From an uncultured Candidatus Saccharibacteria bacterium (GTDB taxonomy: Bacteria > Patescibacteriota > Saccharimonadia > Saccharimonadales > JAGQNJ01): a DNA stretch of 64,000 bases. The notes under the pieces are model-generated. The model had not been told where the DNA came from. It saw only the letters and a list, made by a program, of their open reading frames with translations, and ran no database searches. Positions 6,467 through 40,672 of this stretch are shown here, one piece after another. Location of the stretch: NCBI GenBank assembly GCA_964583075.1, contig CAZOUW010000003.1:6925-70924 (forward strand), given 5' to 3'. How positions within the stretch are numbered: position 1 is the stretch's first letter; every line of letters begins with the position of its first letter. Both the position numbers and the translations under genes were made by a program.

Positions 6467-6539
6467 GAATCCTCCACTTAGTTAGCTCTACCATTATAGC
6501 AAATATGAACGTCTGATTGTTTGGTATAATATACAACTA

Positions 6540-7217
6540 GTGTTTCATTTTGATTTTGAAAGCTTGATTACCGGAAGTGGTATATTGTTAGGCCTAGCGA
6601 TTATCGGTGGCATTATTTTTGCCGAGTCTGGTCTTTTAGTTGGCTTTTTCTTGCCTGGCGATACCTTACTACTATTTGCTGGTTTTTTTGCGGCCCAAGA
6701 CAAACTACCACTTGGTTGGCTACTACTCACCATAGTTATCTGCGCAGTAATAGGTGATAATGTTGGCTACAGCATTGGTCGCCGCACTGGCCCACGCGTT
6801 TTCAGAAAAAAGGACGGTATTTTCTTTCACAAAGACCATATTGAACGCGCTGAGCGGTTTTACAATGAGCACGGTGGCAAAACCATAATCCTAGCCCGAT
6901 TTGTGCCCGTTGTCCGTACCTTTGCGCCTATGGTTGCCGGTATTGGCAAGATGCCACGTAAGCGCTTTATGGCCTTTAATGTTGTCGGTGCATTCGTATG
7001 GGGGGTTGGTGTCACAATGATTGGTTATTTCTTGGGTGGATTTTTTGACCCAGCAACTATAGAAAAATTCATCCTGCCTGTTATGCTCATAGTAACAGTC
7101 GGGACTTTCGGTCCAGCACTGTATCATTTGCTCAAAGAAAAATCGACACGTCAAGCACTTGCTGCGCGTATTAAACTTGGCCTCAGTAACGTTTTTCTCA
7201 ACAAAAAAGTTGACTAG
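6540..7217 (+). CDS. DedA/VTT-domain family membrane protein
   Basis: FAESGLLVGFFLPGDTLLLFAGFFAA and ARFVPVVRTFAPMVAGIGKM motifs; multi-TM. Confidence 0.85.
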   Translation: MFHFDFESLITGSGILLGLAIIGGIIFAESGLLVGFFLPGDTLLLFAGFFAAQDKLPLGWLLLTIVICAVIGDNVGYSIGRRTGPRVFRKKDGIFFHKDHIERAERFYNEHGGKTIILARFVPVVRTFAPMVAGIGKMPRKRFMAFNVVGAFVWGVGVTMIGYFLGGFFDPATIEKFILPVMLIVTVGTFGPALYHLLKEKSTRQALAARIKLGLSNVFLNKKVD

Positions 7218-7220
7218 TCT

Positions 7221-7544
7221 TTATTTTGGTAGAACAATGCCGATTTCCGTACCAAAAAAGGCAATTCCTTCGCCAAACGACTCATTTTTGGGTAGTTTAT
7301 TCCAGCGCTGAGCTCGTTCTGACTGATTAGCCTCAGCATCAGCTTGCATAGCATCACGAGCCTCTTGAGATTCCCACTCTGCAACAGCAAAGTAACTTCC
7401 GTGCTCGTTCCTGACTTCATGCAGATGGGTACCGAGCGCACCAGGGTATTCCTGAAGGATTGCGCTACCTCGTTTCCAGTGATCAATAAATGCCTGTTCC
7501 TCGTCCGGATTGTTCAGTTTTATCTTCCACACAAATCGGTACAT
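7221..7544 (-). CDS. Small ABM (antibiotic-biosynthesis-monooxygenase-like) / dimeric alpha-beta barrel domain protein
   Basis: 107 aa; the F..HW..G........PG..G..L.......YF.VAEWES..A pattern looks ABM-like. Weak call. Confidence 0.5.
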   Translation of the reverse strand: MYRFVWKIKLNNPDEEQAFIDHWKRGSAILQEYPGALGTHLHEVRNEHGSYFAVAEWESQEARDAMQADAEANQSERAQRWNKLPKNESFGEGIAFFGTEIGIVLPK

Positions 7545-7560
7545 ATAATCCTCCTTTTGC

Positions 7561-10374
7561 TTATTTTAGCATTCGTTTTAAGAATTGGCCGGTATAAGAA
7601 TCTTTAACTTTGGCGACTTGTTCTGGCGTACCTTCAGCCACAATACTGCCTCCGTTTTGACCACCATCTGGACCCATATCAATAATGTGGTCAGCTGACT
7701 TGATGACATCCAAGTTATGCTCTATTACTACCATGCTATTGCCGGTATCAACTAACGCATGCAACACACTCAATAATTTATCAACGTCTGCCATATGCAA
7801 GCCAGTAGTTGGTTCGTCCAGAATATACAGGGTGCGGCCAGTTGCACGGCGAGAAAGCTCACTAGCAAGCTTAATACGCTGTGCTTCACCGCCGCTCAAC
7901 GTTGTTGCCGGCTGCCCAAGCGTAATATAACCAAGACCAACATCGACCAGTGTTTGTAATTTACGGGCAATGGTTGGAATATTACTAAAAAATTCAAGCG
8001 CAGTTTCGCAGGTCATTTCGAGCACGTCACTGATGGTCTTGCCTTTGTAATGAATTTCTAGCGCTTCACGGTTGTAGCGTTTGCCCTTGCAGACCTCACA
8101 TGGCACATAAACATCCGGCAAAAAGTGCATTTCAATCTTGATAATGCCATCACCTGCACAGTTTTCGCAGCGCCCACCTTTTACGTTAAAACTAAACCGG
8201 CCCGGACTATAACCACGTAATTTTGCTTCTGGAGTCGCAGCAAAAAGTTCACGAATTGGCGTAAACACGCCCGTATACGTTGCCGGGTTCGAGCGCGGTG
8301 TCCGGCCAATTGGCGATTGATCGATAATAATTGCTTTGTCGAGCTGCTTTATACCCTCGATATCGTCATGCTTGCCTGGCACACTGTTAGCCCGATGCAA
8401 GCGTGCCGCGAGTTCCTTAGCGAGAATATCATTAATGAGCGTTGATTTGCCAGAACCAGAAACACCACTGACGACAACTAATTTACCGAGGGGGATATCT
8501 ACAGTAACATTTTTAAGATTATGCTCGCGCGCGCCTTTAATGCTCAGAGTTTTACCATTACCCGCCCGACGTTTTTTTGGAACAGCAATCTTCTTTTTGC
8601 CCAACAGGTACTGCCCTGTAATACTGTCTTGGTTGTTCGCAACTTCATTTGGTGATCCTATTGCAACAATATGTCCACCATGAATACCTGCCCCCGGACC
8701 AATATCGACTAGGTAGTCAGCCGTGCGGATAGTATCTTCATCATGCTCTACCACAATCACCGTATTGCCAAGATCACGCAAATGTTTAAGTGTAGTAATC
8801 AGCCTGTCGTTATCGCGCTGATGTAAGCCAATCGATGGTTCATCAAGAACATACAGCACACCCATAAGCCCAGAACCGATCTGAGTTGCCAAACGAATAC
8901 GCTGCGCCTCACCACCACTGAGCGTTACAGCGCTACGCAGTAAATTAAGATAGTTAAGACCTACGTCACGCAAGAATTCTAATCGCGCTCTGATTTCTTT
9001 TAATATCTGAGCTGCAATATGTAGTTCTGTCTCACTTAATCTAACTTTTGCAAAATAATTACATGCATCATCAATGGACAGTTCACAAATATCCATTATT
9101 GATTTTCCATCGATCGTTACCGCTAAAACTTCTGGTTTGAGGCGCTTTCCGTGGCAGGCATGACATGGACGCTCTTGCATAAAGCGCTCAATATCACGGC
9201 GAATAAAATCACTCTCTGTTTCTTTGTGACGACGTTCAAGATTTGGTATGACCCCTTCAAATGTTGATTCATAAGACCGGCCAACACCAAGCGAAATTTT
9301 GTACTTTTGACTACCTGTTCCATATAAGATGCGCTGAATATTCTCTGCAGAAATTTCACCCGTTGGCACATGAACGCTAAAACCATACTCATCACCGACT
9401 GCCTGGATTTTTTTCATGTACCATGCATCTACGCTAATGCGATTAAAAGGCCGGATTGCACCTTCAGCCAGCGTCAGACGACCATTCGGAATCACTAAAT
9501 CCGGGTCAACCTCTAAACGAGACCCAAGACCCGTGCAAACAGGGCACGCACCGTGCGGACTATTAAAACTAAATGTCCGCGGCTCAAGCTCAGGAATCAA
9601 AACATCTGGGTGGTCAACACAAGCATACATAAGTGTATGGATTGATTCTTCATCTGCATCAGCATTAAGGATTTTTACCTTGCCATCAGCGACTTCTAGC
9701 GCCTGTTCTACAGACTGACTTAAGCGGCTCAGATTGTCTTGATTGTTAGTCAAACGGTCGGCAACGATTTCAATAGTATGCTTTTTGGCTTTATCAAGCT
9801 CTGGGAATTCATCCAAGGCGTAAATAACACTATCCACTCGCACTCGTGCAAAGCCCGCTCGCTGATATTGTTCTGGGATATGTTCAAAGGCACCCTTTTT
9901 ATCAATAATCACTGGTGCTAGTACAATTAAACGCGCGTCTTTATAACTACGCACTACATTGTCAACGATTGCCTGTGTGGTTTGTCTAGCAACTGGTTTA
10001 CCACACACCGGACAGTGTGGCATACCAACACGTGCGAACAGCAAACGCAAGTAATCATAAATCTCCGTTACTGTCGCAACCGTTGAGCGCGGATTCCGGC
10101 TGGTTGATTTTTGATCAATACTAATTGCCGGGCTAAGACCATCAATTTGGTCAACATCTGGCTTTTCCATAAGCCCAAGAAACTGCCGTGCATAGCTACT
10201 CAGACTCTCAACGTAACGACGTTGACCTTCTGCATAAATAGTGTCGAATGCTAACGATGATTTACCAGAACCACTCAGGCCCGTAATCACCACCAACTTG
10301 TCCCGTGGAATCTCCAAAGAAATATCCTTGAGATTGTGTTCACGAGCACCTTTAACTACTATCACGTCCTTCAT
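7561..10374 (-). CDS. uvrA: Excinuclease ABC subunit A
   Basis: 937 aa; two ABC modules ([23 protein letters not shown], two LSGGEAQRI signatures) and zinc-finger Cys pairs. Confidence 0.97.
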
Positions 10375-29820: not shown

Positions 29821-30587
29821 AATCTGAATAGCGTAAGCGCGTTTTGTGTTGTAGCCGCAGCAAGCTCCTCAAGGCTTTCCTGCCTCAAGTCAGCTAAAAA
29901 CTCTGCTATGCTCACAACGTGCTTAGGCTGACAGATTGTACCACGAAATGGAACAGGGGTCAAGAACGGTGCATCAGTTTCTAGCAATAATCTGTCTTTT
30001 GGCACTTTTCTAGCCATCTCAAGCTGTTCTTGGTCTTTAGTGAAAGTCATTATGCCATTTAAGCCAATATAAAGCCCTCTGGAGAGACATTTGTCAAGAG
30101 TAGCCGATGAGGCCGTAAAACTATGAACAACACCCTTGAGGCCTGTAAATTCGTCAAAAATGGCAAAAAAATCGTCAAAGGCTTCTCTTACGTGAAAAAT
30201 TACCGGCAAATCATGCTCAAGTGCCAGCTCTAACTGATACCGCAACATTGCCTCTTGATCCTCTTTGGAGGAATGGTTGTAATAATAATCTAAGCCAATT
30301 TCTCCGACCGCTACAACACGTGGTTGACCGGCAAGATCACGGAGTTCTTGAAGTGCCTTTTCGTTCTCAACATAAAAATTGGCCTCATGCGGGTGCATAC
30401 CAATACTAGCCCAAATACTTTTGTGTTTAGCTGCCATTTCAACACCCCGTTTGCTGTCAGCCAGCGTGCAACCAACACAAATCATACGAGTTACGTCAGT
30501 ATCGATAGCCCCTCGGATTACTTCATCGGCATCCAAACCATAGTCCGAAAAGTGAACGTGACAATGTGTATCCACAAACTCCGTCAT
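29817..30587 (-). CDS. tatD: TatD-family metal-dependent hydrolase/DNase (YabD-like)
   Basis: FVDTHCHVHF start and GEIGLDYYY; 256 aa; directly downstream of metG, as in Bacillus metS-yabD. Confidence 0.9.
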   Translation of the reverse strand: MTEFVDTHCHVHFSDYGLDADEVIRGAIDTDVTRMICVGCTLADSKRGVEMAAKHKSIWASIGMHPHEANFYVENEKALQELRDLAGQPRVVAVGEIGLDYYYNHSSKEDQEAMLRYQLELALEHDLPVIFHVREAFDDFFAIFDEFTGLKGVVHSFTASSATLDKCLSRGLYIGLNGIMTFTKDQEQLEMARKVPKDRLLLETDAPFLTPVPFRGTICQPKHVVSIAEFLADLRQESLEELAAATTQNALTLFRL

Positions 30588-32053
30588 TACTGTTTGCTTT
30601 GACTAGTACTAGATTTGGACGTTAGCTCATGTTTTGGGAATAGCGTGCCCTCAATTGGCCTAATAACACCTTCCTCAAAGACGTGACGAATCTTTACAGA
30701 CGTTTTTGGCATGAATGGCTCCAGCATTTCAGCAATCTGCAACAAACATGCTGCCTGATATGCCAATACATTACGCAAGTGTACTTTGTCTTTTGTCTTG
30801 GCGATTTCCCATGGCTTTTGTTCTTCAATGTACTGGTTTAAACCTCGCACCTGTTCCCAAACCTCTTCAAGAGCTTTGTCAAAACGACAGTCGTGCAATG
30901 CTTGATGATAACCGCTCACATCATGACCGGTTTCTGGAATCTCACCGAGTATCCCTTCTTCGTAACGTTGAATCATTGCAGCTGTTCGCTGTACGGCGTT
31001 ACCTAACTCGTTGGCAAGTTCATTATTGTAAACTTCGTCTAATCTTTGCCATGAAAAGTCACCATCCGCGTAGCTCGGAATATGCCTCATGAAGAAATAT
31101 CTAAAAACATCGGCTTCGTACCTATTAAGAATCTCATTCGGAGTAATGTAATTACCTAATGATTTGCTCATCTTCTTGCCATTTACCGTGATAAAACCGT
31201 GAACATACAGAAGCTTAGGCAGCGGTAAGCCAAGGCCAAGTAACACACCAGGCCAAATTGCCGCATGAAAGCGTAAAATATCTTTACCGATAACCTGCAC
31301 ATTGGCCGGCCAGTAGTCTTTGAAATCTTGATGTTCTGGATAGCCTAATACCGTTATGTAATTTAATAATGCCTCAAACCACACATACATAACCTGAGTG
31401 TCGTCACCTGGCACTGGTATGCCCCACTCAATCTTGTCTTTCGGCCTAGAGATACTAATGTCTTCTAGGCCTTCGTTAATAACGTGCAAAATTTCATTAC
31501 GACGTGTTTCTGGCACAACCTTAAATTCACGAGAGATAATTGCATCACGAATATGGTCAGCATATTTTGTTAACTTGAAAAAATAGTTATCTTCCTTCAA
31601 ACGAATGTACGGTTTAGCATGATCCGGGCATGTTCCGTTATTCGCTTTTACTAACTGCTCAGTAAAATACTCTTCGTGCCCAATACAGTACCAACCTTCA
31701 TAACTGCCTTTGTAAATATCTTCTTTTAGGTTGTCCCAGGCAATTTGTGCTCGCTGAATATGACCTTCGTCCGTCGTACGAATAAAACGATCGTTACTTA
31801 TGTTGAGAGCTTTTTGCAAATCCCGGAATTTTTGGCTATTTTGGTCGACCAATTGTTTTGGCGTAATACCAAGCTCGGCAGCCTTTTCGGCAATTTTTGT
31901 TCCATGTTCATCAGTGCCCGTTGCGTAAATGACGGGTGTTTTTTGTAACCGTGCCGTGCGTGCCAACACGTCAGCATAAATGAATTCCATTGCGTGGCCA
32001 AGATGAGGTTCACCGTTAGCATACGGAATTGACGTAGTAATAAAATAGTTCAT
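30587..32053 (-). CDS. metG: Methionine--tRNA ligase (short form)
   Basis: PYANGEPHLGHA (HIGH) and KMSKSLGN (KMSKS). Confidence 0.95.
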   Translation of the reverse strand: MNYFITTSIPYANGEPHLGHAMEFIYADVLARTARLQKTPVIYATGTDEHGTKIAEKAAELGITPKQLVDQNSQKFRDLQKALNISNDRFIRTTDEGHIQRAQIAWDNLKEDIYKGSYEGWYCIGHEEYFTEQLVKANNGTCPDHAKPYIRLKEDNYFFKLTKYADHIRDAIISREFKVVPETRRNEILHVINEGLEDISISRPKDKIEWGIPVPGDDTQVMYVWFEALLNYITVLGYPEHQDFKDYWPANVQVIGKDILRFHAAIWPGVLLGLGLPLPKLLYVHGFITVNGKKMSKSLGNYITPNEILNRYEADVFRYFFMRHIPSYADGDFSWQRLDEVYNNELANELGNAVQRTAAMIQRYEEGILGEIPETGHDVSGYHQALHDCRFDKALEEVWEQVRGLNQYIEEQKPWEIAKTKDKVHLRNVLAYQAACLLQIAEMLEPFMPKTSVKIRHVFEEGVIRPIEGTLFPKHELTSKSSTSQSKQ

Positions 32054-32300
32054 GTGTTTAGTCCTATATTAACAGATATCGTTGGTAAAATTCCTAGAGA
32101 AATAAAAGAGAGTTAGCCCAAAAGGGGCATCATGCGAATTTGATTTAACTGCATGGTTGTTTTCATACGGTTATTGTAGCACATCAACACCTGTAGCTAA
32201 GTGCTTGTGGCTAAAGCCCGCTTTAGCTTTATAATTTGCTTCTAGGACTTGAGTGTTTGTCCTTTCACAATTTAACCAAACCACACCCCTTGGAGGGAAG

Positions 32301-33053
32301 ATGACCACCTTTACTGAAGAGCAGGCACTTGACGCAATCTGCTGGAGCGCTGATGTTGATGGCCTCGATGTCCTGATGGACACGATCGACGCCATGCCTC
32401 GCCTGCGCAAGATCAAGATCGACCGCCTGTTCGTCGACACCTACGGCCCAGAGGTTTTCCAACTCTTGGTCGAGAACTACCCAGAGCTGCTGGTCTTCTT
32501 CGACGCCAAATACGCCGAGATACCGACCAAGTTGGCTGAGCTTGCCAAGATCGGATGCAGTCATCGTCCTTGGATGCTTAACTGCATGGCAGACTGCCTG
32601 TCCAACGGTGACTTCAGCAACGCCGACCAGAAGAAGCTCGATGGGCTCAAGCAGTTCGCCGACATCTGTCATGACAACAGTGTACAGCCCTGTGCTGTAT
32701 CTGTGCTGACAACCAAAACGGACCGCATGACCACCTACCAGTTCAACGGCAGGAACAGAGTCGAGCAAGTCCTGTTCTATGCCGAACATCTGGTGGAGGC
32801 GGGCTTTACGCACATCGTCTGCTCTCCCAAGGAGCTCAAGGCGCTACGAGCTGAGCGAAGCTTCGACGGCCTCATCGCCGTGAACGCTGGTATCCGCCCG
32901 GCTGGTTCGGCTCGTGATGACCAGGTCAACGCCGACACGCCGCGAGCAACGCTCGAGGCTGGCTCCGGACTCCTAGTCATCGGACGACCACTGACCAGCG
33001 GCGATCCCGCCGAGAACCTCACCAACATCGTCGCAGAGATCATCGCGACCTGA
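32301..33053 (+). CDS. pyrF: Orotidine-5'-phosphate decarboxylase-like protein (GC-rich islet 2)
   Basis: GGAGGG RBS before the ATG at 32301. FFDAKYAEIPTK matches the D-x-K-x-x-D/E motif, with Glu in place of the last Asp. The C-terminal LLVIGRPLT phosphate-binding motif is present. Confidence 0.7.
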   Translation: MTTFTEEQALDAICWSADVDGLDVLMDTIDAMPRLRKIKIDRLFVDTYGPEVFQLLVENYPELLVFFDAKYAEIPTKLAELAKIGCSHRPWMLNCMADCLSNGDFSNADQKKLDGLKQFADICHDNSVQPCAVSVLTTKTDRMTTYQFNGRNRVEQVLFYAEHLVEAGFTHIVCSPKELKALRAERSFDGLIAVNAGIRPAGSARDDQVNADTPRATLEAGSGLLVIGRPLTSGDPAENLTNIVAEIIAT

Positions 33054-33067
33054 ACAAGGAGGCGCAC

Positions 33068-33745
33068 ATGCCACTTGATATTGAGAAGGAACTTGCCGAG
33101 GCAGGTGCGGTCTATACCGATATGCACTTCGTCTATGCAAGCGGTAAGCACGGCAGTGGGTACATCAACATGGACCCACTGTTCACCAACACGAAGCTGA
33201 TGTGGCATCTTGGTGTCGAGCTATGGGGACCGTTCATCAGTGATGCGCTCTTCTTCGACACCGTTGCTGCACCTGCAACCGGAGGCATTGCCTTGGCCTA
33301 CGCCACCGCCTTCAGCCTCAAGCACGAGATTGACGTTGGTTCTGGTGGACCGATCGTGGATGTCGTCTGGGCCGACAAAGACGGAGGTGACTTTGTCTTC
33401 GAGCGAGCTGGCTTCATCAATCACGTCCGTGATAAGCGAGTCCTCATTGTCGAGGATCTGCTGACCACGGGTGGTTCTGTGGCCAAGGTTGTCCACGAAG
33501 TGGAACGGGGTGGTGGCAACGTCATCGGCGTCAGTGCAGTCTGCAATCGTGGAGGCATCACGGCTGAGTCGTTGGGCGTGCCTCGTCTCGAGTCGCTGCT
33601 CAACGTCAGCTTCGAAGCAGTCGCACCCGAGTCATGCCCGCTGTGCGCAAGCGAGGTACCCATCGTTGCCGACATCGGACACGGTGCCGACCACAAGACG
33701 GGCCATCCCGACTACGCCGGTGGGTACAGGACCCTACTGACCTGA
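33068..33745 (+). CDS. pyrE: Orotate phosphoribosyltransferase-like type I PRTase (GC-rich islet 2)
   Basis: FVYASGKHGSGYINMD, ATGGIALAYA, and the PRPP-binding motif VLIVEDLLTTGGS. 14 nt downstream of the pyrF-like gene. Confidence 0.65.
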   Translation: MPLDIEKELAEAGAVYTDMHFVYASGKHGSGYINMDPLFTNTKLMWHLGVELWGPFISDALFFDTVAAPATGGIALAYATAFSLKHEIDVGSGGPIVDVVWADKDGGDFVFERAGFINHVRDKRVLIVEDLLTTGGSVAKVVHEVERGGGNVIGVSAVCNRGGITAESLGVPRLESLLNVSFEAVAPESCPLCASEVPIVADIGHGADHKTGHPDYAGGYRTLLT

Positions 33746-33831
33746 AAGGAGGTCAACTCACTCGTCCATACCAGGTTTGCCGGTTCCCTGAGCCCTCGAA
33801 AGAGAGCACAAAATAACCGGCAGTACAGGAA

Positions 33832-33990
33832 TTACTCGTATTTACTGGCAAGATGCCAAAGATTGCAGTGTTTACATTTATAACTTTTTAACTTAATGCC
33901 ATGCTGGTGCTCCGCCAGCAAGGCAGCTGCATTAGCGTCTGCTTGTTTATTAAAAACGACTTTGTCGCTACACGGCAGTTGTTCGCTCAT
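33832..33990 (-). CDS. Possible small Cys/His zinc-ribbon-like protein (52 aa), below the ORF-track size cut-off
   Basis: Own translation: MSEQLPCSDKVVFNKQADANAAALLAEHQHGIKLKSYKCKHCNLWHLASKYE. The ATG overlaps the trehalase 3' end by 23 nt. No clear RBS. Confidence 0.3.
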   Translation of the reverse strand: MSEQLPCSDKVVFNKQADANAAALLAEHQHGIKLKSYKCKHCNLWHLASKYE

Positions 33991-35293
33991 CTATATACTC
34001 TCTGCACAATCTTTCAAAAACCGCATTAGTCCACCCAAAGCCAGTCTGAGATGGATACAAACCCTTTGCCGGTGGCTTATTTGGATCAACAACGTTGTAT
34101 TTCTCTAGGAACACGCCATGCTTATTAAACCAATTCAAGTTATTTGTGAGCCATTTAATGGCAATACGCCGAGCATCTTCATGATAGCCGTAGCGTTCTA
34201 AGCCCTGTATAACTATCAGATGTAATGGCGCCCAACCATTTGGGTGTGCCCATTGTGTCGGTACTGTACCCGGCACAATTTGATTGATTGGGATAGTCTG
34301 TGAGTCGGTTGTAGCAAGCCCACCCTTTTCTTCAAACTTGCGTAGAAACTTCACCATTTTTTCCGCCCTGGCCTGATCGACCATGCCAGCCCACATCGGA
34401 AAGTATCCAGCCAGTGAACTCACTGTGCCACGTTTCTCCTTTTTAAAATCATAATCGTAGTAAAAACCACGCATTTCATTCCACATCAAACTATCCATGG
34501 TATGCTTTCTGATTTGGGCTTTCTTTTGCCATTTTTTCACCTCATCATGGTCACCACGCAGTTTTGCGGCAGCACTAAAATCGATCTCATATTTATAAAG
34601 TAGCGAGTTTAAGTCAATGGGCAGGTAGTTGAGTGCCTTGCGTCCAAAACGTGGTGTCATATCCCACCCGCTTTCTGCTTCGGCAAGATCATTCAGATAG
34701 TTAATATCATAATAACGACTCAGCCCTGCATAAACTTGGCGTTCATTTGGCTTTTTAACGCCCATCCAAACTGTTTCGTACTCACTTTTTGCAGACGAAA
34801 TGCTATCAGCTAACCAACGCACGTCCATTTTGTAGCTGTTGTAAACATCAAAAATAAAACTCGTTAAAAATGGTGGCTGAGAACGTCCCATCAAGTATGT
34901 TCTTGAAGCATTGGGTATAACCTTAAAACGCTTTTGCATAGAAATGAGATTTTCTAGGATTCCTGTCACCAATTCCTTGTGGGTGCCATCCAGCATCCCT
35001 TGCACCATAAAGTAACTGTCCCAGTAATACATCTCGTTAAAATCGAATGCATGACCCTCTTCAAAAGCAGGCACCAAATACGGCCTCGGTAAACCAAGGA
35101 GCGTTTCGTCGTCTTTGGGGTGAAAACGCTCCAACCTTTGCCAATAACCACTTACATAAGCCCGAGCTTCACGCACATCATCAGCAGTAAGCTCATGCTC
35201 TTGCGAGCCAAAAAAAGCCTTAACCAGTGCTTTTGGTTTTTTTAACATACTTCTTAACAGTGTATGCCTATAGAGCATTAAGCTCAAGCACAT
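33968..35293 (-). CDS. Trehalase (GH37), apparently cytoplasmic
   Basis: EMYYWDSYF and PTQWAHPNGWAPLH match the two GH37 trehalase signatures. No signal peptide. The real start is probably an internal Met (MLKKPK). Confidence 0.85.
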   Translation of the reverse strand: MCLSLMLYRHTLLRSMLKKPKALVKAFFGSQEHELTADDVREARAYVSGYWQRLERFHPKDDETLLGLPRPYLVPAFEEGHAFDFNEMYYWDSYFMVQGMLDGTHKELVTGILENLISMQKRFKVIPNASRTYLMGRSQPPFLTSFIFDVYNSYKMDVRWLADSISSAKSEYETVWMGVKKPNERQVYAGLSRYYDINYLNDLAEAESGWDMTPRFGRKALNYLPIDLNSLLYKYEIDFSAAAKLRGDHDEVKKWQKKAQIRKHTMDSLMWNEMRGFYYDYDFKKEKRGTVSSLAGYFPMWAGMVDQARAEKMVKFLRKFEEKGGLATTDSQTIPINQIVPGTVPTQWAHPNGWAPLHLIVIQGLERYGYHEDARRIAIKWLTNNLNWFNKHGVFLEKYNVVDPNKPPAKGLYPSQTGFGWTNAVFERLCREYIDERTTAV

Positions 35294-35487: not shown

Positions 35488-35882
35488 GGGGCTGAATTTC
35501 AAGCTCGACGTAGGACTTTATCGGTTATATCAGCAGGCCGCTTACTGAGCGTTATACGGTATTTTTCTAGATGCAAATTCTATGAAAACCGCAAAGGCAG
35601 CTGTAGCAGACTTGTTTGCTCGCAGCAACTTTGCACCAGCTTTAGCTTAATTTGCTTGAGCCGTACATTGTTCAACGCCAGATAGAACAATCGTGCGCCA
35701 TATTTTCTGGCTGCCCTCTTATTGTTACCCACAGTGAGAGCTAAGCCTAAGGGTTGCGGCATCTTGTTATTTTGTCTGTTTAAAGACAATGTGCCAAAGA
35801 ACCAATCTAAATAGACTAAGCCTGTAGACGACTAACCAAGATAAACCAACGGACGTGGGGGCAGTACCCACCAGCTCCACCA
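35488..35882 (+). ncRNA. ssrA: tmRNA (SsrA)
   Basis: The 5' GGGGCUG pairs with the 3' CAGCUCC-ACCA, including the G3:U pair. GCUCGACG follows the acceptor stem. The T-arm is GUGGG-GGCAGUA-CCCAC. The tag reading frame GCA...TAA (35591-35650) encodes AKAAVADLFARSNFAPALA. Confidence 0.92.
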
Positions 35883-37566: not shown

Positions 37567-39267
37567 GTGTCAAGCAGGAATAAAACCATCATCGGGCTCT
37601 TGGCCTGGTGGCTGTGGCTGCCCGTCTTGTACGGGGTCATCCGCGGCATCGTTGCCGTCCTCTTTGGAGGATTGGCGTGGGGTCGGAATATGGACCTCTT
37701 TACGATGGCAAACATCACGTCTGGCGGTGTACTCCTCTGGACGCTTCTGACCATCGGCGCCATCGGCTCGATCATCATCGTCTGGATGGGACTCGACTAC
37801 GACGACAAGCAGATCGCAGTCGTCTCGACTGTGGTTTTCGGAATCGGAACAGCCCTGGCACTTGGCATACTGGTCAAGGTGTATTGGGATAACGACAAGG
37901 ACTTGGCTCGCTACTACAATAGCGAGATCACGTTCGTCGTTCCGGACACCGACAACCCGCCCACTGCCGTCAAGTTGCTCCTCGATGACGCTCACCAGAG
38001 CGACGAAGAGGGATGCGACCTGGAAGGTTCAGCCGACGTGCCAAGCTGCATCGTGCAAGGTGAACTGCCTGACACAGGCTGGGAACCGCGCATCGGCTCG
38101 CTCGACGGCGCCAGGATCGCGTTGCGACGCTCCTCCGGAGATACCCAACGCGTCAGCCTGAACAAGGACATGATGGCATACCTCAACGGTGGCAGTAGTG
38201 ACTCGGAAACCCCCAGATGGAGCGGCATCCTCGACGGCAGCGGCAAGCAGCAGTCGATCGGTGGCGTTGCTGAATGGGCTGGCACGGGAACACCAAAGCA
38301 ATGTTTGTTCGAGGGTAACTTCGAGCTGAACAGGGCCTTTGGCGGTGAACGTGGTAACAGCCTGCCCAACTTGCTGGCAGAGACCTACCCGAACTTGCGG
38401 TGGAACTCGTCTGACGTCTGGGGCTACTGCGATGGCGAAGAGCCGATCGTAGTCATCCCGATGATCAAGCCGGTCTACTTCAAGAACAGGACGGTCAACA
38501 CAGCAGGTGGCATTGTCACCGTACGTGGCGATAACGGCGACACCAAGCTGGAGCACATCACTCAGGTCAAGCCTGGTCAGTTCCCTGGCCCCGTCTACCC
38601 CGCATCGCTCGTCGTGCAACACCGCGAAGAGCTCAAGTGGGCAGCCGGTCGGAAGAATTCCGATGAAGGCCGCGGCAACTTTGGTTTCGACCCAGCCAGC
38701 TCCAAAGCTCAAGCCGGGAATGTGTCGGAGTACCTGTTGCGTAACGCCGAAACTGGGCGACTCGAGTGGGTAACACCGCTGACGCTGCGCGGTAGCTCTT
38801 CCGAGCTCTTCGTGGCCTACGCAATTACACCCGCCGACGTCATCGACGAAGGCCAACTGAACAGGCTCACGATGTACATCCTTGAGCGGGACGACCCTCG
38901 AGCGATCAACATCGACAACTTGGAAGCAGACGCACGGAACTATCTGGCAACCAACGCTGGAACGTTCATCTCCAACGGAGGCAAGCTCATCGAGTTCACC
39001 CCCATCGATGGAGATCTCTGGCGAGCCTTTGGTGAGTTGAACGGACGTGTCGTCTACCGGCTTGACATCAGTGCTAGCGCAAACATCAGACCCGAGTTGG
39101 TCAACATCGGCGCTGGCGCTGACACCCCTGACGAAGGTGAAACACCAAGTAACTCCGAATGTGGCAACACACTCAGTGACCTGACACCCACCCAACTGGG
39201 TGAGTGCCTCAAGGTCTTGACGGATGAGCTTGTCTCACGCCAACCCCCGGGGCCTACCGGCAACTAG
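37567..39267 (+). CDS. Hypothetical membrane protein with large extracytoplasmic domain (GC-rich islet 3)
   Basis: 566-aa ORF spanning the whole islet; GTG start; 3-4 N-terminal TM spans; G/C-rich third positions. The long minus-strand ORFs over it are shadow frames. Confidence 0.7.
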   Translation: MSSRNKTIIGLLAWWLWLPVLYGVIRGIVAVLFGGLAWGRNMDLFTMANITSGGVLLWTLLTIGAIGSIIIVWMGLDYDDKQIAVVSTVVFGIGTALALGILVKVYWDNDKDLARYYNSEITFVVPDTDNPPTAVKLLLDDAHQSDEEGCDLEGSADVPSCIVQGELPDTGWEPRIGSLDGARIALRRSSGDTQRVSLNKDMMAYLNGGSSDSETPRWSGILDGSGKQQSIGGVAEWAGTGTPKQCLFEGNFELNRAFGGERGNSLPNLLAETYPNLRWNSSDVWGYCDGEEPIVVIPMIKPVYFKNRTVNTAGGIVTVRGDNGDTKLEHITQVKPGQFPGPVYPASLVVQHREELKWAAGRKNSDEGRGNFGFDPASSKAQAGNVSEYLLRNAETGRLEWVTPLTLRGSSSELFVAYAITPADVIDEGQLNRLTMYILERDDPRAINIDNLEADARNYLATNAGTFISNGGKLIEFTPIDGDLWRAFGELNGRVVYRLDISASANIRPELVNIGAGADTPDEGETPSNSECGNTLSDLTPTQLGECLKVLTDELVSRQPPGPTGN

Positions 39268-39515: not shown

Positions 39516-40496
39516 TTACTTTTCCCAATTAAAATCACTATGACCAAAGTGACCATAACGAGCTGTTTTTTCAAACTGTGGTTTTTTAAGATCAAGCCAT
39601 TTGACTATACCATTTGGTGACAAATCATAGCCCTTAACCTCTTTTTGAACGCCATCAATAATCACGGTTGCTTCAAGCGGTTGATTATAGCCAATTGCAT
39701 AGGCAAGGTAGCAATATACTTCCTTGGCTTTGTGTTTACGCAAGTAATCTACAGCAATCTTCCTCGCAGCATAGGCCGCCGAACGGTCCACCTTGCTGGC
39801 ATCCTTGCCACTAAAACAGCCGCCGCCAATCGGCACTGACGGGCCATAGTTATCAACTACGAGCTTACGGCCAGTAAGGCCAGTGTCAGCATCAAAACCA
39901 CCAATATGCCAATCCCCGGCTGGATTAACGTGCAACACGATGTCTTTGCCAGGATCAGCCTGTTTCTCTTGTTTCAGCCAAGATTGCACGGCTTCTGTTA
40001 GTTCTGATTTACCGGCATTTTGAAAACTAGCAACAACCGATTGAATTTTGCCATCTTTAAGAGTCACCTGCGTTTTGCCGTCATACGGCCACTTTTCAAA
40101 TAAGTACTGGTTCAGTTTACGACTTAGTACAACCTCTAATGGCAAAAGTTCATTTGTATCGCTACACGCATAGCCAACCATGATACCTTGATCGCCCGCA
40201 CCGCCAGTATCTACACCCTGCGCAATCTCTGGACTTTGCTTAACAATCCTTACTTCGCACTCAACATCTCCAGCAATACGCTCAACGATTGGTTCAACCC
40301 GTACATCCGCCTTACTCGTTACCTCACCTACCACAAAGACTTTGCCGTGGCCACCAACTGCTTCTACTGCAACCCGCGAGTTTGCATCTTTAGCCAAATA
40401 AGCATCTAAGATTGCATCCGAGATTTGATCACACAACTTGTCAGGATGCTTTGGTGATACGCTCTCAGCAGTTTTATATTTGATTTGTGCAGACAT
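39516..40496 (-). CDS. metK: S-adenosylmethionine synthetase, compact form (326 aa)
   Basis: ESVSPKHPDKLCDQISDAILDA, GAGDQGIMVGYA, DADTGLTGRKLVVDNYG, GGGCFSGKDASKVDRSAAYAAR. Confidence 0.95.
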   Translation of the reverse strand: MSAQIKYKTAESVSPKHPDKLCDQISDAILDAYLAKDANSRVAVEAVGGHGKVFVVGEVTSKADVRVEPIVERIAGDVECEVRIVKQSPEIAQGVDTGGAGDQGIMVGYACSDTNELLPLEVVLSRKLNQYLFEKWPYDGKTQVTLKDGKIQSVVASFQNAGKSELTEAVQSWLKQEKQADPGKDIVLHVNPAGDWHIGGFDADTGLTGRKLVVDNYGPSVPIGGGCFSGKDASKVDRSAAYAARKIAVDYLRKHKAKEVYCYLAYAIGYNQPLEATVIIDGVQKEVKGYDLSPNGIVKWLDLKKPQFEKTARYGHFGHSDFNWEK

Positions 40497-40672
40497 GAAA
40501 AAACTCCTTTCTATCTGCCCCGCATGGACAAAGTAAGGAGTTATTTAACTTCATTATCTTCCCCACGTGCGGGCTGAACTTAGCACCTTTTTCGTGTTTT
40601 GACGAATAGGTTGCTGGCAGGTCAACGGGTCAGATCCCTTACTGCTCTCTTGATAGTGATTAAATTGTTAAC
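40497..40672 (-). promoter_or_regulatory. SAM-I (S-box) riboswitch in the metK leader, probably acting on translation
   Basis: The minus strand reads CACUAUCAAGAGAGCAGUAAGGGAUCUGACCCGUUGACCUGCCAGCAACC...AAGGUGCUAAGUUCAGC...GAAGAUAAUGA, matching the SAM-I core. Downstream, AACUCCUU can pair with the RBS AAGGAGUU just before the AUG. Confidence 0.85.

Follow-up and report, generated by a model that had tools for sequence, protein, structure and literature searches.

A GC-rich pair of pyrF-like and pyrE-like genes with a divergent decarboxylase at a conserved Saccharibacterial locus

The 64,000-nucleotide stretch of an uncultured Candidatus Saccharibacteria bacterium analysed here (the window, to which all positions given without a locus name refer) carries, between metG and a trehalase gene, a GC-rich block of two genes. 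They encode a decarboxylase resembling PyrF (orotidine 5′-monophosphate decarboxylase, OMPDC) and a phosphoribosyltransferase (PRTase) resembling PyrE (orotate phosphoribosyltransferase, OPRT). The block begins at about a Shine-Dalgarno-like GGAGGG (32292-32297, + strand) upstream of the ATG at 32301 of the decarboxylase gene (32301-33053, +; 250 aa). A ribosome-binding site, AAGGAGG (33056-33062, +), lies inside the 14-nt intergenic spacer and is followed by the PRTase gene (33068-33745, +; 225 aa), whose product carries a phosphoribosyl pyrophosphate (PRPP) binding loop, VLIVEDLLTTGGS (33440-33478, +), conserved in the PRTase family, and a C-terminal CPLC motif (C190/C193; 33635-33646, +). 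An initial annotation made from the letters of the window had described a GGAGGG-led OMPDC-like gene, a type I PRTase with a PRPP loop 14 nt downstream, and a location between metG and a trehalase gene; all of these elements are present and both flanks were confirmed by Pfam. The two genes form a real operon. The best explanation of our data, which we consider likely to be correct, is a pyrF-pyrE-type operon leading from orotate through orotidine monophosphate (OMP) to uridine monophosphate (UMP), belonging to a divergent subfamily and subject to repeated lateral replacement at a conserved locus.

The left boundary of the block is metG (30587-32053, −; Pfam tRNA-synt_1g), which is conserved in synteny in the loci L050, L024, L021, L011 and L034 of other genomes and has a host-like GC content at third codon positions (GC3) of 0.40. 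The 247-nt region upstream of the pair gave no credible Rfam match (one sub-threshold snoRNA, E = 0.056), and a sigma-70 consensus was not seen there, nor were a leader peptide, an attenuator or a PyrR site. On the right, the block continues beyond the PRTase stop codon as a GC-rich non-coding 3′ tail of about 55 nt (33746-33800, +), which opens with an orphan Shine-Dalgarno-like AAGGAGG (33746-33752, +) not followed by a start codon. This tail may be the vestige of a third cassette gene, since a pyrD-like gene follows the PRTase gene in L016. The immediate right boundary is a conserved, Cys-rich small open reading frame (ORF) of 52 codons (33832-33990, −) with a Cys…CxxC pattern (MSEQLPCSDK…KSYKCKHCNLWHLASKYE) and host-like AT-richness; translations were compared in the window, L050 and L052, and it is called as a gene in L003, L005, L050 and L052. 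It overlaps the 3′ end of the trehalase gene (GH37-like; 33968-35248, −; Pfam Trehalase; GC3 0.43), the conserved right boundary, which is syntenic in seven loci.

The basic identity of the decarboxylase is ordinary, as is that of the PRTase. Residues 14-240 match Pfam PF00215 (OMPdecase) with 58.7 bits against a cutoff of 27, and the NCBIfam matches are PyrF models only, all under cutoff. An AlphaFold2 (AF2) model built on a 113-sequence alignment has a mean predicted local distance difference test score (pLDDT) of 96.6 and complete active-site loops, and all of its top 50 Foldseek matches in the PDB are OMPDC chains, with a template-modelling (TM) score of 0.82 to the Bacillus subtilis enzyme 1dbt; ten of these chains come from the Klebsiella aerogenes entries 8dop, 8doq and 8ek7, which are titled for another enzyme and have OMPDC among their listed molecules. 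We rejected 3-keto-L-gulonate 6-phosphate decarboxylase (KGPDC), hexulose-6-phosphate synthase (HPS) or another member of the OMPDC suprafamily as the identity of this protein: no NCBIfam model for KGPDC or HPS scored below E = 0.1, and none of the top 50 structures belongs to these enzymes. The initial annotation had called for a comparison with KGPDC/HPS and with other PRTases, and by profile and structure matches the two proteins cluster with neither.

The active site of the modelled decarboxylase combines retained and altered positions. It keeps the β1 aspartate D18, the β2 lysine K39, D68, K70, the LTS/T strand, Q208, G228 and R229; among the gripper and pyrimidine-binding residues, Q208, G228, R229, T137 and T138 are present and P196 is replaced by Ala. 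The motif D68-A-K70-Y-A-E73, read at 32502-32519 (+), was aligned by HMMER on DlKfyDI of 3tr2 and DlKfhDI of 3ldv, that is, on the canonical D-x-K-x-x-D; the Glu in place of the second Asp noticed in the initial annotation is thus genuine. In OMPDC active sites such as those of MtOMPDC and ScOMPDC, the second Asp and the Thr of D-I-P-x-T come from the partner subunit, and an Arg or Tyr two residues past the gripper Gln helps to hold the phosphate. Because these positions have such roles, the altered positions of the decarboxylase are not random. The Glu73-for-Asp change is nevertheless a conservative one, with which OMPDC chemistry may be compatible.

These changes delimit a subfamily. Of the 120 closest homologs, about 115 have Glu at the fourth tetrad position. 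When 1.84 billion cluster representatives were searched with a profile, 8,441 OMPDC-like clusters were returned, about 47 of which score at least 198 bits; roughly a quarter of the latter are fragments or give no pattern match, and all but one of those with a readable motif are D-x-K-x-x-E, mostly together with WSAD and PWMLN. Below about 175 bits the matches turn to canonical DLKFHDI…NvH sequences. Clustered at 50% identity, the subfamily comprises some 50 groups, compared with the thousands that canonical D-x-K-x-x-D sequences make up. A column comparison of 25 subfamily sequences with 45 canonical PyrF sequences shows 100% Glu at the fourth tetrad position in the former and 100% Asp in the latter. 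Kept across both sets are the β1 Asp, the β2 Lys, D68, K70, I-P, V-x-V-L-T-S, C-S, P-G-x-R, D-Q, T-P and G-R. The fixed differences of the subfamily are V-A-L to W-S-A, G to D41 (with R42), D to E73, T to K77 and H to M96, and Cys123, Cys131 and Cys174 are invariant within it, which yields the signatures WSAD, K-x-D-R, D-A-K-x-x-E-I-P-x-K and PWMLNCM. The window's own clade has additionally acquired S138T, P196A and R210N. In a neighbour-joining tree rooted on canonical PyrF the subfamily is monophyletic with 100% bootstrap; our trees and identity matrices are distance-based and rough, and their deep nodes are weak. This is a previously undescribed and clearly delimited OMPDC variant.

The members of this subfamily are overwhelmingly Saccharibacteria/Saccharimonadia. 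Outside this group we found one tight clade of metagenome-assembled genomes (MAGs) from Solirubrobacterales/Actinomycetota, itself supported by 100% bootstrap and nested among Saccharibacteria with weak deep nodes, and one MAG binned as Mycobacteriales. The Solirubrobacterales clade includes a 5.3-Mb chromosome, OY969768, in which the pair lies among unrelated genes. Around the pair in L013, L015, L018 and L032 (Solirubrobacterales/Actinomycetota, high GC) there is a conserved neighbourhood of an approximately 980-aa AAA_16/TPR regulator, an aminotransferase-like gene and a small regulator, with no pyr genes, which suggests that the pair is vertically inherited in these four loci and possibly has an accessory role there. 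Solirubrobacterales find no support as the direct donor of the window's gene: in the rooted tree their sequences make up one tight group within Saccharibacteria, and they share only about 50% identity with the window protein.

The downstream gene product is best described as an OPRT of the TIGR01367 'Thermus/Helicobacter' type. It matches Pfam PF00156 (Pribosyltran) with 41.7 bits against 26.3, and TIGR01367 is its best family by a wide margin; APRT, XPRT, HGPRT, UPRT and a PurR- or PyrR-like class were discarded, all of them scoring at most 30 bits against 116 for OPRT. The AF2 model (118-sequence alignment) has a pLDDT of 94.7 and complete active-site loops. Its best PDB match is 4paw, Helicobacter pylori HP1257, which is named OPRT in the PDB sequence file, and OPRTs account for 41 of its top 42 matches. 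E129, D130, L131, L132, G135 and S137 of the loop region are family invariants. The CPLC-containing tail had been regarded as unusual in the initial annotation. This view does not hold: C190 and C193 are invariant in the 118 family members, and CPLC aligns with 'scplcatsvaik' at the C-terminus of 4paw and with the end of the TIGR01367 model. Both oddities that had been singled out, D-x-K-x-x-E and CxLC, are thus family traits. The predicted orotate specificity of the PRTase draws support from its pairing with an OMPDC-like gene.

The neighbourhoods of the subfamily in other genomes show how constant this pairing is. We collected 39 loci from one-genome-per-species contigs plus loci of close relatives, and scored the neighbours in 42 loci, in 36 of which an OPRT-family gene is immediately adjacent. 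The partner is TIGR01367-like in 26 loci and PRK13809-like in L017, L024, L031 and L052, while in six animal-associated genomes, one of them a Nanosyncoccus, a canonical-type PyrE lies upstream (TIGR00336 with 133-159 bits over a cutoff of 106.8 in L038, L039 and L044; the other three were assigned by tblastn). Three unrelated OPRT lineages alongside the same decarboxylase are what one would expect if OMP is the shared intermediate. In L017 a PyrD-like gene and PyrC (TIGR00856, 376 bits against 293) stand directly upstream of the pair, tblastn homologs of PyrC and the PyrD-like gene occur in the same order in L028, and a PyrD-like gene adjoins the decarboxylase or the pair in L009, L012 and L016. 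The cassette is therefore not always stand-alone, as the directly upstream pyrD-like and pyrC genes of L017 and L028 make clear. Two of the collected loci deserve separate mention. In L016, a type I dihydroorotase-like gene (6511-7629, −; DVHIHLREPGG) with a host-like GC3 of 0.37 adjoins the GC-rich decarboxylase-PRTase-pyrD-like block (GC3 0.62-0.72), so that native and 'foreign' pyr genes stand side by side. In L053 (952-2100; P0002), an almost identical decarboxylase runs for about its first 175 residues and then continues in frame into an unrelated Thr/Gly/Ala-rich stretch of about 207 aa; this 2.1-kb low-coverage contig holds either an assembly chimera or a disrupted allele.

Based on the above data, we propose that the downstream type I PRTase would join orotate and PRPP to give OMP, which the upstream TIM-barrel enzyme would decarboxylate to UMP. 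The operon would let a reduced Saccharibacterium make UMP from orotate, and the orotate could come from the host or from pyr genes beyond the window. The genes of the cassette would be replaced laterally, repeatedly, from a GC-richer pool, which would keep the cassette in its GC-rich state. The pair are very probably pyrF and pyrE in function, with substrates and activities that are predicted, much as the initial annotation had claimed for PyrF-like and PyrE-like proteins acting from orotate to UMP. This pyrimidine reading is supported by the fold, by the retained catalytic and phosphate-binding residues and by the adjacency of the subfamily to pyrE, pyrC and pyrD-like genes; for the OMPDC role, the neighbourhoods amount to guilt by association and not to proof.

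The composition of the pair is clearly foreign to its surroundings. Both genes have a GC content of 0.58, close to the figure of about 60% given in the initial annotation, and their GC3 is 0.73 (decarboxylase) and 0.66 (PRTase), far above the 0.37-0.43 of five neighbouring genes; metG, tatD, the cysteine desulfurase gene and the trehalase gene lie at 0.39-0.43. Among the 58 ORFs of the window the corresponding z-scores are 3.8 and 3.1, and only one other gene (37567-39267) exceeds 3. The GC profile places sharp edges at about 32290 and about 33800, with the non-coding tail included, and GC1 and GC2 of the pair are elevated as well, as is the tail itself. High expression was rejected as the cause of the GC3 values, since glycolytic and ribosomal genes in the window (such as that for ribosomal protein L25) have ordinary GC3.

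The same picture recurs across relatives. The pair occupies the metG-trehalase locus in the window, L050, L024, L021, L011 and L034, and the contig of L052 covers the trehalase side only; the shared order is metG–(Nudix/MazG)–decarboxylase–PRTase–small ORF–trehalase. The pair forms a sharp-edged block in each of the seven syntenic loci, with a GC3 of 0.62-0.84 against 0.36-0.50 outside. More widely, each of the 32 Saccharibacterial/Patescibacterial loci has a decarboxylase gene with a higher GC content than its flanks, the excess being above 0.05 in 19 cases. In the five Actinomycetota loci there is no such excess and the gene matches its genome. Since the same metG-trehalase locus is occupied in at least seven divergent Saccharibacteria, the cassette is not a fresh insertion. 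Since MetG and trehalase of the syntenic relatives are only 63-77% identical to those of the window, amelioration should long have erased the traces of one old transfer. The histories of the two genes, moreover, conflict with each other and with those of the flanks. Between the window and L021 the flanks are 75% identical, the decarboxylases 48% and the PRTases 71%; between the window and L050 the values are 74-77%, 57% and 40%, respectively; and L052 has the closest decarboxylase (68.5%) next to a different OPRT type. Window and L052 group with 100% bootstrap, and window, L052 and L050 with 95%, with L021 outside that clade. Because the two genes are discordant with each other and with the flanks and yet persistently GC-rich, we favour repeated lateral replacement, gene by gene, at a locus that stays fixed and with a GC-richer pool as the source, over one recent insertion; the direction and the mechanism of this gene flow are inferred from these patterns.

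Several observations count against such replacement. The decarboxylase tree partly follows the flanks (window, L052 and L050; L024 with L011), which leaves room for a locus-specific force. Only short chance matches were found as direct or inverted repeats at the flanks, no tRNA or Rfam element was found at the block borders, and no mobility genes lie within 10 kb on either side of the pair. IMG/VR, INPHARED and PLSDB hold no copies of the subfamily, canonical pyrF only (about 30% identity), and we found no candidate donor of the cassette. The horizontally acquired islet of the initial annotation therefore stands in part: the foreign composition and the discordant gene histories are borne out, but the presence at the same locus in at least seven relatives and the lack of repeats, tRNA and mobility genes do not fit it. 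An origin in anti-phage defence or in a phage was dismissed, since PADLOC gave nothing, PHROGs gave weak generic PRTase matches only, and no viral or plasmid copies of the subfamily were found.

The same observations feed the alternative that survives best, although we regard it as unlikely: an operon of identical function that is inherited vertically and kept GC-rich by a local force, such as GC-biased gene conversion at a recombination hotspot or selection on transcript composition. A block that is GC-rich at the same place in each of seven divergent genomes would follow naturally from such a force, as would a decarboxylase tree with a 95% clade and an L024-L011 pairing that echo the flanks, and neither a mobility signature nor a donor would be needed; the divergence of the flank proteins by 23-35%, after which neutral amelioration of one old transfer should be complete, also suits it. 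It is less easily reconciled with the identity patterns of the two genes, which conflict mutually and with the flanks, or with the exchange of OPRT types between close relatives. Selection at the codon level also fails to explain the GC-rich GC1, GC2 and tail of about 55 nt, which biased conversion could explain, and the highly expressed genes of the window are not GC3-rich. In Actinomycetota, finally, the genes match their genome. For these reasons we retain repeated lateral replacement as the favoured history.

A second alternative, which we judge improbable, concerns function and not history. The PRTase might ribosylate a carboxylated heterocycle other than orotate, for instance an analogue of it, and the decarboxylase, with its E73, K77, D41 and M96, might then remove the carboxylate to yield a modified nucleotide and not UMP. 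The points that lend it substance are those that detract from a plain pyrF-pyrE assignment. Both proteins fall under the NCBIfam equivalog cutoffs: the decarboxylase scores 83.7 against 193 with NF001273 and 51.1 against 92.3 with TIGR01740, and the PRTase reaches 116.3 bits with TIGR01367, whose cutoff is 150.25. Of the Lys/Asp-x-Lys-x-x-Asp tetrad, K39, D68 and K70 are kept and the final Asp is Glu73, and G to D41, T to K77 and H to M96 alter further positions conserved in canonical PyrF, so that the subfamily-specific changes affect four positions that are at least 89% conserved there; in solved OMPDCs two of these, the second Asp and the D-I-P-x-T Thr, reach the active site from the neighbouring subunit. 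Asn210 of the window replaces the Arg that stands two positions past the gripper Gln in 100% of canonical PyrF and in 80% of the subfamily. Six loci have the decarboxylase without an OPRT in reach, including L025 (10001-10705; Saccharibacteria isolate AER2_9, 674-kb contig), where no OPRT-like gene lies within 10 kb on either side. The large Solirubrobacterales chromosome that carries the pair among unrelated genes probably has its own pyr genes.

Against a different substrate, the subfamily adjoins canonical PyrE and PyrC genes that score above their cutoffs as well as PyrD-like genes, and its use of three OPRT lineages as partners fits OMP as the shared intermediate. The Lys-Asp-Lys core, the LTS/T strand, Gln208 and Arg229 are kept, and the nearest structures are all OMPDC and OPRT, with no match to a defence system or a phage family. 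The initial annotation had taken the Glu of the tetrad as a hint of another substrate; as this residue is a fixed signature of the whole subfamily, which is located in pyrimidine gene clusters, Glu73 says little in favour of one. That the pair are decaying, non-functional remnants of a lost de novo pathway is very hard to believe: the decarboxylase does diverge faster (57-68% identity) than the flanking housekeeping genes (74-77%), the window clade has lost the conserved residues changed by P196A, R210N and S138T, and L053 has a truncated or fused allele, but both ORFs are intact with good ribosome-binding sites, the proteins are identical on 15 contigs of independently sequenced and assembled metagenomes, the AF2 models are confident with complete active-site loops, and 36 of 42 loci keep the two genes together.

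The pathway context of the window is sparse. No pyrC or pyrD homolog was detected by tblastn in its 64 kb, and Pfam annotation of its genes, extended by a scan of ten further ORFs of which several had no match, revealed neither a pyr or car gene nor a permease for nucleobases, apart from the pair itself, in agreement with the earlier statement that pyrB, pyrC, pyrD and carAB are missing from the window. The sole notable transporter is a major facilitator superfamily (MFS) Sugar_tr protein encoded beside a MarR regulator.

In the usual models, Saccharibacteria cannot synthesise nucleotides and depend on nucleic acids of the host. Our literature search found no paper on orotate, OPRT or OMPDC in Saccharibacteria/Patescibacteria. 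A KEGG supplement table lists the UMP module as absent from AER2 Saccharibacteria, with no gene for 4.1.1.23 or 2.4.2.10 (PMC7786006), and near-complete de novo pathways have been reported for one Saccharimonadia genus (2026 preprint). The MAG of L025, labelled isolate AER2_9, apparently the same genome and near-complete, does carry a member of the subfamily; since the table has no 4.1.1.23, standard annotation has missed this decarboxylase. An orotate-to-UMP module conserved across many Saccharibacteria is thus one that standard annotation can miss, and accounting for it would change the metabolite that the episymbiont is thought to need from its host.

A bolder extension, which we put forward only tentatively, is that Saccharibacteria and some Actinomycetota, the candidate host phylum, share a private K-D-K-E (D41, K77, M96) OMPDC lineage whose cassette is continually re-imported or gene-converted at a fixed site and never ameliorates. 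If this were true, the cassette would be a marker of ongoing gene flow between host and episymbiont, and it would provide a hidden route from orotate to UMP in organisms that are generally said to lack nucleotide synthesis. The altered active site might, in addition, reflect a change of substrate or of regulation. Across deep divergences the block has remained 10-15 GC points above its genome at the same locus even as its genes were swapped, which makes it a compact test case for recurrent transfer versus biased gene conversion. For enzymologists, the subfamily offers a natural experiment, in which the tetrad Asp becomes Glu together with three correlated changes, in an enzyme that ranks among the most proficient known. 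What makes the system worth following is its rewired tetrad, the blind spot in annotation and a locus that swaps its genes without ameliorating.

Elsewhere in the window, the only other strongly GC-rich gene (37567-39267, +) encodes a 566-aa protein with an N-terminal membrane segment (GC3 0.72, z = 3.9) and has no Pfam, PADLOC or PHROG match. Its homologs are confined to Saccharibacteria (at most 78% identity, including the L021 genome) and Actinomycetota (many Nocardia species at 46-54%, as well as Parafrankia and Frankia), a spread over two phyla that is also seen in the OMPDC subfamily. The two GC-rich islands of the window flank a trehalase-tmRNA-CAP segment, in which a transfer-messenger RNA (tmRNA) gene (35488-35882, +) stands between the trehalase gene and a CAP-domain gene. 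A SAM-I riboswitch (40551-40659, −) lies upstream of metK (39516-40496).

Compared with known systems, the decarboxylase resembles bacterial type 1 PyrF (1dbt; Escherichia coli 1eix) in its (β/α)8 barrel, equal length and operon link to OPRT, and in keeping the V-x-V-L-T-S/T strand, P-G-I-R, D-Q, T-P and G-R. It differs in being only 20-24% identical and below the equivalog cutoffs, and the subfamily is set apart by VAL to WSA, KxG to KxD(R), DIPxT to EIPxK, NxH to NCM and the three invariant Cys. The PRTase shares with the TIGR01367 type represented by 4paw (HP1257) the N-terminal H-F-x-x-x-S-G-x-H, the PRPP loop and the C-terminal Cys-x-L-Cys, but it is under the cutoff, about 26% identical to 4paw, and extended beyond the model by a conserved extra tail of about 25 residues, D-I-G-H-G-x-x-Y/H-K-x-x-H-P-D-Y-x-G-G-Y. 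With a classical horizontally acquired islet the block has in common the sharp discontinuity in GC, GC1, GC2 and GC3 and the discordant gene histories; it departs from one in being present at the same locus in all relatives examined, with no integrase, tRNA, repeats or identified donor. As in pyrF-pyrE operons and fused UMP synthases (PRK05500-type), the last two steps are encoded by neighbouring, co-transcribed genes, and a pyrFE arrangement is also that of Thermus. What distinguishes the present subfamily from these operons is that its OPRT partner is interchangeable, being drawn from three types and placed either upstream or downstream of the decarboxylase.

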